Of a stretch of 39,156 bases of DNA, positions 12,699 to 28,030 are shown one piece after another. How positions within the stretch are numbered: position 1 is the first letter of the stretch; each line of letters opens with the position of its first letter. Origin of the DNA: a virus (taxonomy: Duplodnaviria > Heunggongvirae > Uroviricota > Caudoviricetes); IMG/VR virus record IMGVR_UViG_2695420487_000015, one strand, 5' to 3'. The notes under the pieces are model-generated. The model was given only the letters and a program-made list of their open reading frames with translations. It ran no database searches and was not told the DNA's origin. A program made the position numbers and the translations under genes.

Positions 12699-13412
12699 TT
12701 GGATAACAAGGAATATCAGAGGCACTTTGGAATAATAACTGATGAATTACAAAAGCCTTCCGATAAACATTTGAGAGCATTTACGCAGGTTGCTGACATT
12801 AGAAAGTTTGAAATTGAGATGTATTGGAAAAGAGCTACGTATTTCTGGACCATTATTGCTATTACTTTTACTGGTTATTTTGCTTTAGCCTCCGCAAATA
12901 GCTTTCCGTTCAAAAATGCATTTTCTCTTTTGCTTTCCAGTATGGGATCCGTTTTTACTCTTTCATGGTTTTTGGTAAACAGAGGTAGCAAATACTGGCA
13001 GGAAAACTGGGAAAATCACTTAGACCTGATGGAAAACGGCATAACTGGGCCGCTCTATAAAACTGTACTCTCACGACCGTCAGTCGAAGCCAAAAAAAAC
13101 GCACCTCAACTTGCGAGTACTGATAAAGATTTTATCGACAAACATATCACCGGCCCCAAAAAAATATCAGCATCCAAAATTAACCAATTAGTTGCATTTT
13201 ACTTGCTTGGCATATGGTTAATATTAGTAATGACAACAATTACTAACATCTTAAAACTATCATTCTGGAGTGAATCCACGATAGAAGTAGTGTTGAGCGT
13301 GGGAGTTTTAATTTGGTCAGCAATAGCCACTAGTTTAATGTTTTGTAAGTCAGCCACCTATACAGGAATACAGACTTCAGAGGCAAGAAAACGCTCTTCG
13401 AATTTGTTATAA
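12699..13412 (+). CDS. Cargo gene: predicted four-helix membrane protein of unknown function
   Basis: AT-rich ORF with four hydrophobic segments. Track start is a TTG at 12699 preceded by AAGAGGA; the first ATG is at 12819. Lies between tail genes V and S. Confidence 0.6.
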   Translation: MDNKEYQRHFGIITDELQKPSDKHLRAFTQVADIRKFEIEMYWKRATYFWTIIAITFTGYFALASANSFPFKNAFSLLLSSMGSVFTLSWFLVNRGSKYWQENWENHLDLMENGITGPLYKTVLSRPSVEAKKNAPQLASTDKDFIDKHITGPKKISASKINQLVAFYLLGIWLILVMTTITNILKLSFWSESTIEVVLSVGVLIWSAIATSLMFCKSATYTGIQTSEARKRSSNLL

Positions 13413-13680: not shown

Positions 13681-14757
13681 TTATTTTCGTTTGCCATAAG
13701 ACTGGGTTAGAATCGGAGTAATATCCTTAGTAAAGATATCTAGTCTTTCTTTTTCGGCTGAGAAAACATACTGTCTGGCTTGAATTACATTTTGCCTACT
13801 AATTAAGTTTGACACCTTTTCTGGTTTGCTTAGTGCAACTTTGGCACCCTTGAATATCAACGCTAAGCCCGGTGATATTGTAAAAATACATCCATTATCA
13901 AATGAAAAATCATTTTTTAAGAAAATAAAAGGAAAATCACTTGAAACAATGGCATATCCCTTAGGTGCTGAGTACAAATATACCCTACAACTACTCTCAT
14001 TGGTGATTGAGGAAAAAGGTAACGCCATAAATCTATGCATCTTTCTAAGTAAGTAAAACATTTCCCTCCGCTGTCCGCTGTCCGCATTAACTAGATACGT
14101 TCCTCCCTCCTTTAGTATAGATAACAAAGACCTCCATTCAGAACGTGGGATTATGCTCGCACCAGAAGGAATGAGATCCTTATTAGTATTCAGTACTTTC
14201 TTGATGGTGGTGTTTATATTTTTTAATTTTGGCATGGAGCCTTTATCAAAAAAATCATCCATACCTTTGTTTCTATAACATAAAAAACGGGCCATGAAAA
14301 TTGCCATGTTTTTTAAATCGTTGAAATCAATCTCATGCAAACCACTACATACTATCGAACGTGCGAATTTTTTTTCCGAAAGCTTGCCAAGCAACCAGTG
14401 TCTACGCACGAAATAATGACTACCTGAAGCATTTTTAAAATGCTCCTTTAATTTATAAAATTGCCACATTGCGTCTACAAAATCAGGGTAACAATCCTCT
14501 AGTATTTTAAAACTGTCCTCAATAAAGTTATCTCTATCCCCATCAATATAAAGAGTATGCCTTCGCTCTTGACCACAAATTTTTGTGGCATTAAGAAAAG
14601 TAATCCTTTCTTTTATTTGCTTTTTGGTGGCATCTGTTTTCACAAAACCATAAACAGTATCTTTCCCAGTCTTTGGGTCTTCAGATGTTATTTTAAAATG
14701 CCTGATATAAGTTGCAGGCAGATAATGCTGATAGTTTTGAAAAGTTCCCTTTGACAT
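13681..14757 (-). CDS. Cargo gene: DUF4238-like protein, candidate single-gene anti-phage defense protein
   Basis: AT-rich, 358 aa from the ATG at 14757, preceded by GGAGG and only 13 nt after the S stop. N-terminal HYLPATYIRHF resembles the DUF4238 signature as I recall it. Confidence 0.6.
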   Translation of the reverse strand: MSKGTFQNYQHYLPATYIRHFKITSEDPKTGKDTVYGFVKTDATKKQIKERITFLNATKICGQERRHTLYIDGDRDNFIEDSFKILEDCYPDFVDAMWQFYKLKEHFKNASGSHYFVRRHWLLGKLSEKKFARSIVCSGLHEIDFNDLKNMAIFMARFLCYRNKGMDDFFDKGSMPKLKNINTTIKKVLNTNKDLIPSGASIIPRSEWRSLLSILKEGGTYLVNADSGQRREMFYLLRKMHRFMALPFSSITNESSCRVYLYSAPKGYAIVSSDFPFIFLKNDFSFDNGCIFTISPGLALIFKGAKVALSKPEKVSNLISRQNVIQARQYVFSAEKERLDIFTKDITPILTQSYGKRK

Positions 14758-22448: not shown

Positions 22449-23485
22449 TGAGCAAGAAACGCAACAAGCGCCAGCAGCAGCCGCGCACTCAAAACCACAC
22501 CGCCGCACCGGCGCAGAGCATGGAAGCATTCACTTTTGGTGAGCCGACGCCGGTACTCGACCGCCGCGATATTCTCGACTACGTCGAGTGCATCGACAAC
22601 GGCCAGTGGTACGAGCCGCCGGTGAGCTTTTCCGGGCTGGCGAAGAGCATGCGCGCCGCCGTGCATCACAGCTCGCCGATTTACGTGAAGCGTAATATTC
22701 TGGTATCGACCTACATCCCGCACCCGCTGTTATCCCGTCAGGACTTCACCCGGTTTGCGCTCGACTATCTGGTGTTTGGTAATGCGTTTATCGAAGAGCG
22801 TCGCGGCCTGACCGGCAAGCCGTTAAAACTGGAAACTTCACCGGCGAAATATACCCGCCGTGGCATCGAGGATGACGTGTACTGGTATATTCAGTCCTAC
22901 ACGCAGCCGCACCAGTTCGCGCCCGGCTCCGTCTTCCACCTGCTCGAGCCCGATATTAATCAGGAGCTTTACGGGATGCCGGAATACCTGAGCGCGCTCA
23001 ATTCAGCCTGGCTGAATGAATCGGCGACACTGTTCCGTCGCAAGTATTACCAGAACGGCGCACATGCGGGTTACATCATGTACGTGACCGACGCGGCGCA
23101 AAGCAGCGCTGACGTCGAGGCGCTGCGAAAGGCGATGCGCGACTCAAAAGGGCTCGGCAATTTTAAGAACCTATTTTTCTACGCACCAAACGGTAAAGCC
23201 GACGGGATTAAAATTGTGCCGCTGAGCGAAGTTGCCACGAAGGATGATTTTTTTAATATCAAGAAAGTCAGCGCCGCTGACCTTCTCGACGCGCACCGCA
23301 TCCCATTCCAGCTTATGGGCGGTAAGCCCGAGAACGTCGGCTCAGTGGGTGACGTTGAGAAGGTGGCAAAGGTCTTTGTGCGTAACGAACTGACCCCGCT
23401 ACAGGCGCGGTTTATGGAGCTGAACGAGTGGGCGGGTGAAGAGATTATCCGCTTCGAAAAATATAGCCTCGGCGACGACGAGTAA
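22448..23485 (+). CDS. Q: Portal protein Q
   Basis: Start at ATG 22448 (MSKKRNKRQ), which overlaps the P stop as TAATG; 345 aa, close to P2 gpQ in size. Confidence 0.85.
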   Translation: MSKKRNKRQQQPRTQNHTAAPAQSMEAFTFGEPTPVLDRRDILDYVECIDNGQWYEPPVSFSGLAKSMRAAVHHSSPIYVKRNILVSTYIPHPLLSRQDFTRFALDYLVFGNAFIEERRGLTGKPLKLETSPAKYTRRGIEDDVYWYIQSYTQPHQFAPGSVFHLLEPDINQELYGMPEYLSALNSAWLNESATLFRRKYYQNGAHAGYIMYVTDAAQSSADVEALRKAMRDSKGLGNFKNLFFYAPNGKADGIKIVPLSEVATKDDFFNIKKVSAADLLDAHRIPFQLMGGKPENVGSVGDVEKVAKVFVRNELTPLQARFMELNEWAGEEIIRFEKYSLGDDE

Positions 23486-23661
23486 CCCCACCTACAGCCG
23501 CCCGTCGTGGCGGCTTTACCCCCACCGCACACAACACCCTCAGCGCCACGACACGCCGTCGCCGCTTCGCTTCACCTCGTAACTCACCCACTACAACAAC
23601 AACGCCACAGCGACGCGCCCAGGCGCTGAATAAATAAATTAAATACCACGCTCAGCGCGCA

Positions 23662-23680
23662 ATGCTATCCCCGCCACGCC
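23662..23680. other. Candidate cos site (19-nt cohesive end)
   Basis: Reverse complement reads GGCGTGGCGGGGATAGCAT, resembling P2/186 cohesive ends as recalled; located just downstream of Q as in P2. Confidence 0.45.
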
Positions 23681-23827
23681 TGCCCGCTTTATGGGTCGGT
23701 TTTAATGCAGTTGCATGACCACTCTGGATCTGCGCCAGCTCTGGCATTACACGTCCAGAACTAGCAAGCCTTGCGAATGCAAAACCATGCTTCTTATACA
23801 TGCACAGCTAAAAACAGAAAATAACAT

Positions 23828-23855
23828 AAAAAAACCGGCATCAAGATGCCGGTTT
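23828..23855 (-). terminator. Intrinsic terminator downstream of the acyltransferase gene
   Basis: Hairpin CCGGCATC..GATGCCGG followed on the minus strand by a 7-nt T-run. Confidence 0.6.
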
Positions 23856-23952
23856 AGTTCATATCATATCATGCTTGCACTTGTGGCCTATAAATGTGCT
23901 GAAAATACTATTAAGTAAAACATCCATGATCATCGTTCTGCTGAAGCCCTGT

Positions 23953-25170
23953 TTAATTAGCTTTATCAAGGCGTCCCCCCACCACCATCCGCTTGTAATT
24001 TATTGCGAACAACTTAATTTTTTCAGGGAACTTTGACGCCAAAATTATTGACTTTCTGTCTACATATGAATAAAAGGGCATTGATATCAAAATAGTTATC
24101 ATCGAAGTTAAGATAAATGTAACAAACGCACCAACGGACGGCGACGCAATGTTTTTGTAAACCCAAAAACCAACTATAGATATAACAAATGGATGAAGCA
24201 AGTATATTGAAAATGACAACTTCCCAATAAACAAGACTACATTTTTGCTCATCCCCCTTAAACATCTCCCATTCACAAAGACAGAAGCAATAATCAAAAA
24301 AGAACCAAGCGATATTGTAAACTCTGGCCATTGTATTAATATACCGCATTGAAACTGAAGGTAGAGGTAAAATTCAACCAGATCTTTATACGCAGTGCTC
24401 GCCGGTGCATACCCAACAAGATAAAGGCCAATAAACAACATAAGAAGCGATACAAACTTTCTTAACCGTCCATTATTTTCACTTATCTCGAAAGTTGATA
24501 AAAACACACCAGAAAGGAAAAGCCCATAATAAATTACATTAATACTACCAGACAAAAACATGCAAACAAATGAAATAAACGACAACCAGCGAAGAATGGT
24601 CTTGTTCTCACCAAACAGAGATATAAATCCGTATACCAATATAGAACCAAAAAACTCAATACTAATAGTCCACAGAACATAGTTATACTTTATATTACCA
24701 AAAAGCATAGCGCCAAATGAAGCATCCCATATGGCTGACACTATATTCCCATCAAAACTAAACGCAGTCATTAACGGCATTGATGCAGCGGGGCTATCCT
24801 TATCCGGAAAAAAGCCCAACAACATTATAAAATAGCAAATAATCACAGATGCTGCTACGGGAACCCCAAGCCTAATGTATCTCTTCAATGCTGATGCTTG
24901 TATATAACGTATTTCGTTATTATTTTTTTGGCAACTCAGTGACAAAACCAACCCGCTCAAAACAAAGAATAAGCTAACAGCAGATCCCCCCTTATAGAAA
25001 AAAGTAAAAGGGCTATTAAATAAATTTTCTTGCCACTTGCTATCAAACATACTGCCAGAATGCACCGAAGGTATAAACATTAAAAATGAATGCGATAAAA
25101 CGACAGCCATGGCTGCCACACCTCTTATCCCATCAAAGATTTTTACATTATTTCTCTCATTATCACTCAT
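23953..25170 (-). CDS. Cargo gene: acyltransferase family 3 membrane protein (O-antigen/LPS acetylase type)
   Basis: AT-rich, 405 aa, about 10 hydrophobic segments, N-terminal DGIRGVAAMAVVLSHS motif typical of acyltransferase-3; sits in the cos-to-A interval, the P2 tin/old slot. Confidence 0.75.
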   Translation of the reverse strand: MSDNERNNVKIFDGIRGVAAMAVVLSHSFLMFIPSVHSGSMFDSKWQENLFNSPFTFFYKGGSAVSLFFVLSGLVLSLSCQKNNNEIRYIQASALKRYIRLGVPVAASVIICYFIMLLGFFPDKDSPAASMPLMTAFSFDGNIVSAIWDASFGAMLFGNIKYNYVLWTISIEFFGSILVYGFISLFGENKTILRWLSFISFVCMFLSGSINVIYYGLFLSGVFLSTFEISENNGRLRKFVSLLMLFIGLYLVGYAPASTAYKDLVEFYLYLQFQCGILIQWPEFTISLGSFLIIASVFVNGRCLRGMSKNVVLFIGKLSFSIYLLHPFVISIVGFWVYKNIASPSVGAFVTFILTSMITILISMPFYSYVDRKSIILASKFPEKIKLFAINYKRMVVGGRLDKAN

Positions 25171-25268
25171 GCAAAAAACCTTTTATAATAAAAAATGTCA
25201 TTTCGATTAACGTATTGTATTGGTTATTATTGTGTTATAACTGACAATCAACCTTAAAAAAACGCGGC

Positions 25269-25297
25269 ATTATAGCACCTTAAGCCTGTTGTATGAA
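25269..25297 (-). promoter_or_regulatory. Candidate sigma-70 promoter for the acyltransferase gene
   Basis: Minus-strand TTCATA, 17-bp spacer, TATAAT. Confidence 0.3.
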
Positions 25298-25463
25298 TAT
25301 CATTATTGTTTTGACAGGAAGAGTTCCGTTTACGCCCCACCTAACCTTCGGAGCACTGAGTAGTGCTCCCAATGAGGTTGGAATAAGGGGAGATTCAAAA
25401 AATAGCTGACCATTCTATGCAGGCAACCCAACTACCAGCATACAACTTGTTTTTTCTCGCAAC

Positions 25464-25646
25464 TTACTCAGCCTTTGTTAATCGTTCTTCAGCATGGGTT
25501 GCAGAGAAAACCAGTGAAAAGGAGTTATTTTTCATCAAGTTGCCTCTCACTATTTCTGCAATCAAATTCAATGCGATTTCACGGTCTCTTTCCTTACAAG
25601 TCCCTTCAGCCGTTAGACGCGCAATCATTTCGACTCGCTCAATCAT
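25464..25646 (-). CDS. Small hypothetical protein (60 aa) downstream of a LexA box; candidate SOS-controlled antirepressor-like gene
   Basis: First ATG at 25646 with a weak RBS; charged, helix-like composition. The track's longer ORF starts at a GTG and would contain the LexA box. Confidence 0.3.
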   Translation of the reverse strand: MIERVEMIARLTAEGTCKERDREIALNLIAEIVRGNLMKNNSFSLVFSATHAEERLTKAE

Positions 25647-25691
25647 AACGTGCTCACTTAATTCTCTATCCACACAACCTCCACAACGAGA

Positions 25692-25711
25692 TACTGTATA
25701 AACATACAGTA
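25692..25711 (-). promoter_or_regulatory. LexA box (SOS operator)
   Basis: TACTGTATAAACATACAGTA: exact CTGT-N8-ACAG palindrome with AT-rich spacer, close to the E. coli LexA consensus; 46 nt upstream of the small ORF. Confidence 0.55.
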
Positions 25712-25789
25712 ACACATGTTGATAAAAAATGTGAAGGAAAAAAACCAATAAATACACTGTATGTGCATGATATGGATGAATATTAACGG

Positions 25790-28030
25790 TTATATTTTCA
25801 TTGCCAGTTCAGTTAAAACCGCAACGCGATTGAGGATTTCTGTAGCTTTGGTCTGATGTTCCTTAGCTCTATCTTGATGCGATGGCGCTGCGGAAAATAT
25901 TTCGCCTTTGGCCGTTCCGCGTAACCATTTACCATCAAAACAACTTTTACCACCGACCATCAGGTGCAGGGCTTCGCCCCGGCTGATAACGATGCCAGTT
26001 GTCAGATGTATCTCGTCGATAATTTTCGCTAAAACTGCGTTTTGCTCATTCGTTCCGTGAATGAATTTTCGCCGTATTTGTGGTTTTTGCTTCCTGAGTC
26101 GGTTTGTCAGCTCTCGTCTTTCACGTCGACTCAAGGGTTTTGATAAATCGAGTTCCGGTGGATCGCTTTCGCTTCCCGTATAGTTATTGACAGAACTCCG
26201 AGAGGGCGCAGGAGCGCCCTTAACGTCAACGGCCAAATCAACGGCACGCTTCGGCACAATTTTCCACTGCGTTAACCGGGTTAAAATCGGGGTGCCAGCG
26301 CCGACAGCAGAGTCGTAGACGCCACGAATGCAGACGGTTTCCTCACCATACTGGTTAAACTCGGGGCGCGGCTCATACAGCGTGCGCACCTGTAAATCAT
26401 CGCGACAGACAAACGGACCACCCTGCGCACTAACGTAACCAGCCCAGTCACCGGCGTCAGCGGCATCATGGACGGCAGCAAACTCAACGCTCAGACCGTG
26501 CGCGGTCTCGGTATCAGCGAGACGACGTAATTCACGGTAGACCGTCACCGGCGCACCGCCGATAAACTGGAACTGACGGATGTGCCAGCGCGCCGCCCAT
26601 GCTGATACGGCGGGGGCTGTCTCTTTCAGCAGCTCACCGCTTTCGTCATCGGTTTCACCATCAAGAGCATATCCGTCGATGTTTTTGGAAATGTATTTAG
26701 CGACATAGCCGGTAGCGCTGCCCTTTTCTGGGTCAATGGCTTCGGCATGAAAGCGCGCTTTTTTGGCTTTATCGCTTCTCAGTTCATGGCGGTCTTCCTC
26801 CCACGCATAATCACGGATGATGAGACGCACACTCTCGACGTCTTCCGGCAACATGAACATAAGCATGTGCCAGTGCGGCGTTCCGTCGTGATGAGGCTCA
26901 GCAACACGGATGCCGAAAATGCGGATTTCTTCCCGGTGTAGCTTGGCGCGTATGCGTGCCCAAAGACCGGTTAGATAGCTCTGCGTGTCCGAAGGGCTGG
27001 CACCGTTCCATTTGCTATTACGGTAGCCCGCTTTAGTCGTGGCGTGATATTTAGACGGTGCGGTTAAAGTGTAAAACTCACCGACATAACCGAGCTCATT
27101 GCAGATATTTTCAAACCCACGGATGCGGGTCATCAGCTCGCAGCGACGTATTGCAGGGTTAGCAACCGAACCATCGTATTTTTCAATCAGACTGATGCGG
27201 TTGCCGTCTTCGTCTTCGAGCTCCAGTCCTTTAAGAAATTCGCGCGTGCGGCGTTTCTGCTCGCGCCAGTCAGTCACGCAGTTTTTACTCGCGTAGGCGT
27301 GCTTTTTCTTACTGACGTTGCCAACAGCAATTTGTAGATGTTCGCGCCATGCAGACGCAATGCGACGTAAACGACCACGCCACCAAACCTCATTAAACAT
27401 GCGCATTACTGCCGGTGCGATTTCATCCTCACCAAAATATTTTTTAGTCACACGCTCCCATTTCGGCGGTGTAACGTTGAATTGCAGGGAAATAAAACCG
27501 GCGCGCATGTACCAGGCGTACAGCGTTTTGAGTTCGCTAAATCCGGTGTCATCAATATCAGCCAGTTCAGCACGAATGAAATTAGCGATATCAGCGGCAA
27601 GCAGGTCAATATCAGCGCGCGACATATCCGGGAGGCGGTTAAATCTGGCGACCATATTGACCATGCGTGACGCCAGATATTGCATAAGCTGGGTATCAAA
27701 ATGACCATCGAAAACAGAGGCTGATACATTGCTGTTGATGCCCGAGCACTCATATTTTTTTGCGACGAGTTCAAGACGTGGCAATGCCTTTTTGCAGAAG
27801 CTGATTAAAAAGGCATTGGCTCGTTGACTGCCCTGATTTTGCTCCAGTACCGCAGCGGTACGATAAACATCAAAGCGCACACACTCTGGCTGGAGAGAAA
27901 GCACCGTTCTCGCATGCAGCAAAGCCGCGAACATACGGTCGCGGCGATGCTGTTGGTCATAGGTAAGATATGGGCTGGCTAATGCCGACCGTGGGGCATT
28001 CCACGGAAACGCGTAAACTACACCCGTCAT
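25790..28030 (-). CDS. A: Replication initiation protein A (rolling-circle nickase)
   Basis: 746 aa; size and position match P2 gpA. Confidence 0.85.
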   Translation of the reverse strand: MTGVVYAFPWNAPRSALASPYLTYDQQHRRDRMFAALLHARTVLSLQPECVRFDVYRTAAVLEQNQGSQRANAFLISFCKKALPRLELVAKKYECSGINSNVSASVFDGHFDTQLMQYLASRMVNMVARFNRLPDMSRADIDLLAADIANFIRAELADIDDTGFSELKTLYAWYMRAGFISLQFNVTPPKWERVTKKYFGEDEIAPAVMRMFNEVWWRGRLRRIASAWREHLQIAVGNVSKKKHAYASKNCVTDWREQKRRTREFLKGLELEDEDGNRISLIEKYDGSVANPAIRRCELMTRIRGFENICNELGYVGEFYTLTAPSKYHATTKAGYRNSKWNGASPSDTQSYLTGLWARIRAKLHREEIRIFGIRVAEPHHDGTPHWHMLMFMLPEDVESVRLIIRDYAWEEDRHELRSDKAKKARFHAEAIDPEKGSATGYVAKYISKNIDGYALDGETDDESGELLKETAPAVSAWAARWHIRQFQFIGGAPVTVYRELRRLADTETAHGLSVEFAAVHDAADAGDWAGYVSAQGGPFVCRDDLQVRTLYEPRPEFNQYGEETVCIRGVYDSAVGAGTPILTRLTQWKIVPKRAVDLAVDVKGAPAPSRSSVNNYTGSESDPPELDLSKPLSRRERRELTNRLRKQKPQIRRKFIHGTNEQNAVLAKIIDEIHLTTGIVISRGEALHLMVGGKSCFDGKWLRGTAKGEIFSAAPSHQDRAKEHQTKATEILNRVAVLTELAMKI

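Follow-up and report, generated by a model that had tools for sequence, protein, structure and literature searches.

The window analysed here, the whole 39,156-nucleotide (nt) stretch of the IMG/VR virus record IMGVR_UViG_2695420487_000015 (Caudoviricetes), is an E. coli prophage that carries, downstream of its replication gene A, a predicted LexA operator, a promoter and a short gene related to tum of phage 186. We conclude that this region is very probably a short-form SOS-induction module, belonging to an E. coli prophage that is 186-like (Eganvirus-type). What the module is, judged from the letters and their alignments, is close to certain, and its function in this allele, for which the comparison with relatives argues, is likely. 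The coordinates of the features are collected in Table 1.

Table 1. Features of the predicted induction module and of its surroundings in the window.
Feature	Position	Strand	Basis
Predicted LexA (SOS) operator	25692..25711	-	Two mismatches to consensus; identical to the 186 site
p95-type promoter	25706..25735	-	Aligns column for column with the annotated -35 and -10 of 186 p95
Shine-Dalgarno sequence GGAGG	25678..25682	-	4 nt before GTG; invariant in six of six aligned homologues
tumA-type gene (antirepressor half of Tum)	25464..25673	-	55/67 identity to 186 Tum residues 1-67
Start of replacement DNA	25171..25471	-	186 homology ends at 25472; no called intrinsic terminator
Cargo: family-3 acyltransferase, O-acetyltransferase-like, 405 amino acids	23953..25170	-	Pfam Acyl_transf_3, 3.9e-25; PHROG 3333, O-acetyltransferase
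cos-proximal segment	23681..23814	-	186 positions 30491-30624 (record end, 134 bp) align at 84%
Replication gene A, 746 amino acids	25790..28030	-	Open reading frame list; RefSeq 'replication endonuclease'; 84% DNA identity to 186 A
CI immunity repressor, presumed antirepressor target	30231..30806	+	66% identity to 186 CI

The predicted LexA operator, the promoter and the short tum gene

The preliminary description of this stretch had singled out an exact CTGT-N8-ACAG palindrome with an AT-rich spacer. The palindrome is present where it had been placed and reads TACTGTATAAACATACAGTA, the minus strand reading TACTGTATGTTTATACAGTA. The CTGT-N8-ACAG core by itself is not rare: it occurs once in the window, where 0.42 copies are expected, and is present in 36 of 100 shuffles. 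The full 20-mer agrees at 18 of 20 positions with TACTGTATATATATACAGTA, the 20-nt enterobacterial LexA consensus, and it is the only site in the window with no more than 3 mismatches to that consensus (0.01 expected; 1 of 100 shuffles gives a match). The outer 8 + 8 bases of the box form a perfect palindrome of the form TACTGT-N8-ACAGTA with an AT-rich spacer. The minus-strand box is identical to the LexA protein_bind feature of phage 186 p95 (U32222, 29044-29063), and the same sequence is found in PHB48 and in a Salmonella prophage at an equal position relative to promoter and gene. A chance palindrome without function would fit the expectation of 0.42 for the core, but the expectation of 0.01 for the 20-mer match and the conservation of the site base for base in 186, PHB48 and Salmonella prophages make this extremely improbable. 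The 186 site is annotated as 'putative' in U32222, and LexA control of 186 p95 is stated in PMC7708051.

The promoter consists of a -35 hexamer TTCACA (25735-25730), a spacing of 18 nt and a -10 hexamer TACTGT (25711-25706) on the minus strand, with a TG at 25714-25713, one base 5' of the -10, that makes it an extended -10 promoter. The -10 is at the same time the left half of the LexA box. The alignment with 186 p95 shows that its -35, 18-nt spacing, -10, upstream TG and GGAGG are all kept in the window. A generic promoter scan did not call this promoter because its -10 agrees at only 3 of 6 positions. Two bases of the spacer, 25716 and 25718 (AACATG), differ from the rest of the prophage lineage and from 186 (AATACG); both fall outside the hexamers and the box. 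We also noted a perfect palindrome, ATACAGTGTAT, at 25752-25762, past gene A and 16 nt 5' of the p95-type -35, which is invariant among the 186, PHB48, Salmonella and Klebsiella homologues and is perhaps a regulator site or a piece of the gene A terminator. Control of a plus-strand gene by the box was considered and rejected, as nothing lies on that side but the 3' end of gene A and an open reading frame (ORF) of 31 codons.

The small ORF reported 46 nt downstream of the box was recovered. An ATG at 25646, 46 nt below the box edge, opens a frame of 60 codons that ends with TAA at 25466-25464. A version of 69 amino acids (aa) begins at the in-frame GTG 25673, which is homologous to the annotated start of 186 Tum. 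The ATG corresponds to the internal 186 start 'Tum95.2', nine codons downstream of the GTG, and the 60-aa form is probably made besides the 69-aa product. Gene callers report instead a 97-aa ORF from GTG 25757, which is the longest in its frame and is present as a called protein in public assemblies. However, its first 28 codons are the -35, the spacer, the LexA box and the Shine-Dalgarno sequence, and the homologues begin at the GTG or the ATG and not at its start. Because this start precedes the promoter, the 97-aa frame could not be translated from the p95 transcript, and we consider it most unlikely to be the real product.

The similarity of the region to 186 extends across the regulatory sites and the gene. 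In a blastn comparison with phage records, 25830-25472 matches 186 at 84% across the features p95, LexA and tum. The 69-aa protein and 186 Tum residues 1-67 are identical at 82% of positions (E 2e-39), an alignment that upholds the earlier proposal of a tum-like antirepressor candidate, and a tblastn search with the window protein matches tum genes of 186-like phages. The match to PHROG 189 is limited to profile positions 1-67 of 151, the non-DinI part, and the stand-alone PHROGs 1993 and 37919 match the window protein over its full length. The DinI family PF06183 hits 186 Tum at 1.8e-17, and the 69-aa protein has no Pfam or NCBIfam family match, PF06183 included. On these comparisons the ORF is classed as the antirepressor half of Tum (PSP3 TumA type) and not as full-length Tum; nor is it classed as a DinI-family protein, the DinI domain (PF06183; NCBIfam PRK10597) having been looked for in it and not found. 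The preliminary description had called the ORF much shorter than 186 Tum, and it is so because only the antirepressor half is there, the DinI-like half being absent from the window.

AlphaFold2 models the protein as a helical hairpin (residues 7-22 and 28-46, predicted local distance difference test score about 85) with a low-confidence tail, and the 12 divergent C-terminal residues fall within the linker region of fused Tum. A profile search of PDB sequences returned no solved relative (best E-value 0.14). RefSeq, annotated by the Prokaryotic Genome Annotation Pipeline (PGAP), labels the ORF as a pseudogene, 'DinI family protein, missing C-terminus'; the DinI label comes from the fusion protein and is wrong for this ORF. 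Neither Pfam nor NCBIfam has a model of the Tum antirepressor domain, and no structure of it is solved. Its stand-alone copies are scattered across the 'unknown function' PHROGs 1993, 37919, 8554 and 698, and the fused-form PHROG 189 takes its name from the DinI half alone.

Proposed function of the short form

The end of the gene was compared with 186 and with relatives in which tum is split. By blastn, similarity to 186 extends as far as 25472 and is then lost until 23814-23681. The 186 positions 29284-30490, which comprise the DinI half of tum, t95a, orf97 and t95b, are replaced in the window by 1657 bp (23815-25471) of 32-38% GC content, and tblastn detected no homologue of the DinI half or of Orf97 in the whole window (E above 0.2). 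The split-tum relatives have a separate gene of 69-70 aa followed by a DinI gene of 72-76 aa. When the junction was aligned with them, homology continued through the TAA and about 3 bases beyond it, so the stop was not supplied by foreign DNA. In fused forms the codon at the place of the TAA immediately precedes the internal GTG from which the DinI half starts, and the truncation thus lies exactly at the domain boundary.

The domain assignment draws on Lemire et al. 2011, on GenBank notes and on work with E. coli HS. Lemire et al. 2011 (PMC3121763) describe Tum as resembling an antirepressor fused to DinI, report that in Fels-2 and PSP3 the two halves are separated by a stop codon, and place the antirepressor activity of PSP3 in the upstream gene (personal communication, via Bunny et al. 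2002). The GenBank note on the 60-aa tumA of PSP3 reads 'similar to 5' end 186 tum; UV induction of prophage'; tumB is annotated as DinI-like, and a near-consensus LexA box, TACTGTATAAATATACAGTA, lies upstream of tumA. At this position Fels-2 carries an ORF of 62 aa, with a DinI-family gene behind it. In E. coli HS, deletion of tum abolishes mitomycin-C-induced lysis, as does lexA(Ind-), and the published delta-tum primers flank exactly the 62-aa ORF and leave the start of the DinI-like gene intact. These reports indicate that the short half would be the part needed for SOS induction.

Moreover, stand-alone forms of the gene are widespread. A large protein search returned 259 homologues; the best 120 of the 259 are 63-117 aa long, and many of these 120 are named 'Tum protein', from Salmonella, Klebsiella, Enterobacter, Kluyvera and Edwardsiella. 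Some of the inspected loci are split with a separate DinI gene, and in others the short gene stands alone, with no DinI gene and with unrelated cargo behind it (either a DNA methylase and a ParB_N-like gene or a STAND nucleoside triphosphatase, NTPase). In every inspected locus the short gene directly follows A, the promoter is the same and the box is identical or almost so. Among 40 stand-alone proteins residues 1-57 are nearly invariant and the tails vary freely. The ratio of nonsynonymous to synonymous substitution rates (dN/dS) over codons 2-57 is 0.06 between the window and 186, and 0.04 at a dS of 1.7 between two stand-alone forms, from Salmonella and Klebsiella, so that purifying constraint persists in the stand-alone state. 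The protein sequence of the window is unchanged in diverged members of the lineage. In a set of 5426 complete E. coli genomes, 42 carry a 186-type tum, and 37 of these 42 have the short form.

Several observations weigh against a functional short form. RefSeq and PGAP file the ORF as a pseudogene, and its last 12 residues differ from 186 Tum. Recognition of the cognate CI is assumed, because the DNA-binding domain of the window CI is 64% identical to that of 186 and the operator repeats differ. The evidence from PSP3 consists of a record note and a personal communication cited second-hand. The Tum of E. coli HS is of the Fels-2 type, and hhalign does not establish it as a homologue of the window protein (probability 9%). 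Furthermore, much of the constraint behind the low dN/dS between the window and 186 may date from before the truncation.

The locus might accordingly be read as a dead remnant, in which tum was destroyed when the cargo inserted, the 69-aa stump is inactive or unstable, the prophage is not SOS-inducible (P2-like) and the LexA box is a fossil. The call of an incomplete pseudogene by PGAP and the absence of the DinI half and orf97 would suit such a remnant, and an insertion sequence (IS) that splits the operator in at least 7 related E. coli genomes would fit a dispensable locus. But the truncation falls on the exact domain boundary, with the antirepressor half, promoter, operator, Shine-Dalgarno sequence and the two start codons left intact. 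Comparable stand-alone genes occur widely and show strong purifying selection, and a short tum is annotated or shown as the induction gene in PSP3 and E. coli HS. The IS insertions, for their part, are explained by the preference of the element for SOS boxes (see below) and not by decay. We therefore regard a dead remnant as unlikely.

The presumed target of the antirepressor is the CI repressor of the prophage. The immunity module had been described as 186-like, and the comparison agrees: the int-cI-apl-cII-fil-dhr block is 85% identical in DNA to 186 across 3468 bp, and CI is 66% identical overall, with residues 128-191 reaching 86%. Pfam identifies Phage_CI_repr and Phage_CI_C in this CI and reports no S24 peptidase domain in it. 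Judged by its domains, CI would be of the 186 type and not RecA-cleavable, and a CI without S24 peptidase fits antirepressor-based better than cleavage-based induction. The prophage is probably heteroimmune to 186, because the operator repeats differ while the antirepressor core is kept nearly identical.

From 186 (PMC7708051), PSP3, Fels-2 and E. coli HS we infer the following course of events, including LexA binding, SOS dependence, CI binding and the sufficiency of the short form. In the lysogen, host LexA would occupy the operator and keep the p95-type promoter shut, because the operator overlaps the -10. DNA damage would activate RecA and lead to self-cleavage of LexA, upon which the promoter would fire and the 69-aa protein, probably with the 60-aa form, would be made. 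This predicted two-helix-hairpin antirepressor would bind CI, which RecA does not cleave, and keep it from binding its operators, so that the early lytic promoter would open and the prophage would excise and replicate. In 186, orf97 and the DinI-like half of Tum do no more than modulate induction. DinI-like products are said in the 186 record to 'modulate SOS induction', and because they are missing here the kinetics of induction may differ.

The analyses thus suggest that the gene is most likely a working induction gene of an intact 186-like prophage. This would call for a correction of annotation, since 37 of the 5426 complete E. coli genomes file it as a broken DinI gene, and it bears on predicting prophage release by DNA-damaging antibiotics. 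A lineage without the DinI-like half and orf97 is also a natural experiment on what both contribute.

Cargo, genomic setting and insertion sequences

The preliminary description had placed the ORF and its box in the A-to-cos interval, where 186 carries tum. Gene A ends at 25790 and the homologue of the right cohesive end of 186 maps to about 23681, so both lie within this interval as proposed. P2-like phages have variable cargo between A and cos, and in P2 tin and old are found there. In the window the replacement DNA holds an acyltransferase gene, whose product is likely an O-antigen or surface-sugar acetylase. The gene has a promoter-like site of its own at 25297-25269 (TTCATA-17-TATAAT with a TG, 10 of 12 matches). 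A terminator scan of 25100-25900 called none, and the 300-nt spacer folds no more stably than its shuffles (z 0.07); a T-run at about 25395-25403 follows weak pairing. A repeat search over the junction found no flanking repeats to explain the swap of cargo.

As no recognisable terminator lies between them, the acyltransferase gene may receive SOS read-through transcription from the p95-type promoter. The operator might even serve mainly the cargo, in that read-through from p95 would make a surface modification SOS-inducible whether the antirepressor is active or not. The absence of a called intrinsic terminator between the stop codon and the acyltransferase gene would allow this, as would the 186 p95 transcript, which passes tum into orf97 through the partial terminator t95a. 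Against it stand the good promoter-like site of the acyltransferase gene itself and the T-run, which could terminate transcription. In addition, the differing cargo of relatives (methylase, reverse transcriptase, NTPase) argues for a general slot rather than a regulatory design. We give such a primary role of the operator a rather low probability; read-through into the cargo is in any case an addition to the main explanation and not an exclusive rival to it.

The slot between tum and cos is also occupied variously in other prophages, by a methylase with a ParB_N-like gene, a STAND NTPase, a helix-turn-helix gene with a reverse transcriptase, a WapI-like gene or orf97-like genes, and it looks like a hot spot for cargo or defence genes. 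Lineage member 675SK2 has a different annotation at the position of the cassette. A search of 23400-26000 with Rfam gave only a sub-threshold rnk_leader match at 23823-23926 on the minus strand (26.9 bits against a gathering threshold of 50; E 0.09); it lies at the cassette's edge, shortly past the acyltransferase gene, and is probably chance or a terminator-like structure.

The prophage is essentially identical to sequences in E. coli strain 10 (NZ_CP048330) and others, adjoins a tRNA-like gene, and has both att regions within the window. Gene A of the 186 record (694 aa) ends about 150 nt before the ends of the window gene (746 aa) and of the PHB48 gene. The DNA homology runs past the 186 gene A end, and the shorter 186 gene may be genuine or may reflect a frameshift in that old sequence. 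Further non-core genes lie at 12699-13412 (plus strand), 13681-14757 (minus strand) and 31821-33284 (minus strand). According to RefSeq for an identical E. coli locus, a hypothetical gene and one for a 'RipA family octameric membrane protein' lie among the tail genes. A hypothetical gene of 487 aa lies between int and the att site.

At least 7 of the 37 short-tum E. coli genomes carry, within the tum operator, an ISL3-family element of about 1315 bp that PGAP assigns to the 'ISKox3 family' and that cuts the operator in two. The insertion point is equivalent to 25698-25705 of the window, with the junctions TACTGTATGTTTAT and ATGTTTATACAGTA on the two sides of the element; the 8 bp that are duplicated coincide exactly with the LexA-box spacer, the middle 8 bp of TACTGT-N8-ACAGTA. 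In a Klebsiella prophage another, different copy of the element is inserted at the same point. In Klebsiella CP032833, tumA and the methylase genes lie between two copies next to uvrA, and at the first copy half of the tum SOS box is joined to half of what we take to be the uvrA/ssb SOS box, with no duplication in common, which points to recombination between two IS copies from different SOS boxes.

We then surveyed the element by scanning one genome per species for its left end. CTG stands exactly 12-10 nt before the element in 31 of 42 distinct left flanks (mean 0.58 at other offsets), and CAG at +10 to +12 in 20 of 27 distinct right flanks (mean 0.42 at other offsets). The consensus of the flanks, TACTGT-ATATATAT before the element and ATATATAT-ACAGTA after it, is the LexA consensus. 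Since the spacers differ from site to site and agree with the duplication across the element, the motif is a property of the target rather than of the IS. The neighbours identified through Pfam are uvrA, ssb, polB, ydjM, sulA and four umuD-like genes, which we take to belong to the SOS regulon; the flank at a fifth umuD-like gene is nearly identical in sequence to one of the four. The conserved 'ISKox3-umuD' context of IncX3 blaNDM plasmids fits the same preference for SOS boxes.

We are highly confident that this preference of the element for SOS-box sites is real. A literature search for a link between ISKox3 or the ISL3 family and LexA or SOS boxes found nothing relevant among the papers searched, which is not proof of novelty, and the chances that the preference is previously undescribed seem about even. 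That it is both real and not described before is slightly less probable than the reverse. Involvement of the LexA protein in the targeting, that is, recognition of LexA-bound DNA as opposed to sequence alone, appears doubtful. If true, a preference for LexA operators would be a new kind of target choice for an IS and would explain ISKox3 beside umuD on the widespread IncX3 blaNDM plasmids. It would also mean that SOS-controlled induction of prophages, and the SOS regulon of the host, could be disabled or rewired by a transposon, operator by operator, and would offer bacteria a simple route to lock prophages in or to deregulate SOS genes.

Comparison with known induction systems

The closest known system is the SOS operon of phage 186. 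It has the same position after A and before cos, the LexA box, the -35, -10 and Shine-Dalgarno sequences and two start codons; the proteins agree at 82% of positions over Tum residues 1-67, and both phages have a CI-based immunity module of one type. Unlike the window gene, whose product stops at residue 69, the 186 gene encodes a Tum of 146 aa with a DinI-like domain (PF06183, residues 87-145), and where 186 continues with t95a, orf97 and t95b the window has the acyltransferase cassette.

PSP3 resembles the window in having a short, stand-alone 60-aa gene, tumA, after gene A and behind a consensus-like LexA box, and the two proteins show weak profile similarity across the helical core (hhalign probability 83%). 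TumA is however very divergent, presumably fitted to a different CI, and the DinI-like tumB follows directly downstream, whereas the window is without one. Fels-2 STM2728 and the Tum of the E. coli HS prophage DuoHS are alike in being 62-aa ORFs after gene A with a LexA-box-like sequence. A protein this small can thus be a P2-like induction gene product, because deletion of the 62-aa ORF of DuoHS abolishes induction by mitomycin C. In contrast to the window, DinI-like and orf97-like genes follow this ORF. GfoA and GftA of the Gifsy phages and AntC of N15 are likewise small, LexA-controlled antirepressors that bind a non-cleavable repressor, and in Gifsy the antirepressors are co-transcribed with a dinI homologue, with dinI first. 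Their proteins, phage type and gene order differ, so the likeness is functional only.

By every sequence-level feature that was compared, the locus belongs with the module of 186 Tum and PSP3 TumA. Its layout with TumA only, in which cargo takes the place of the DinI partner and orf97, is also found in other genera and is not a new type.

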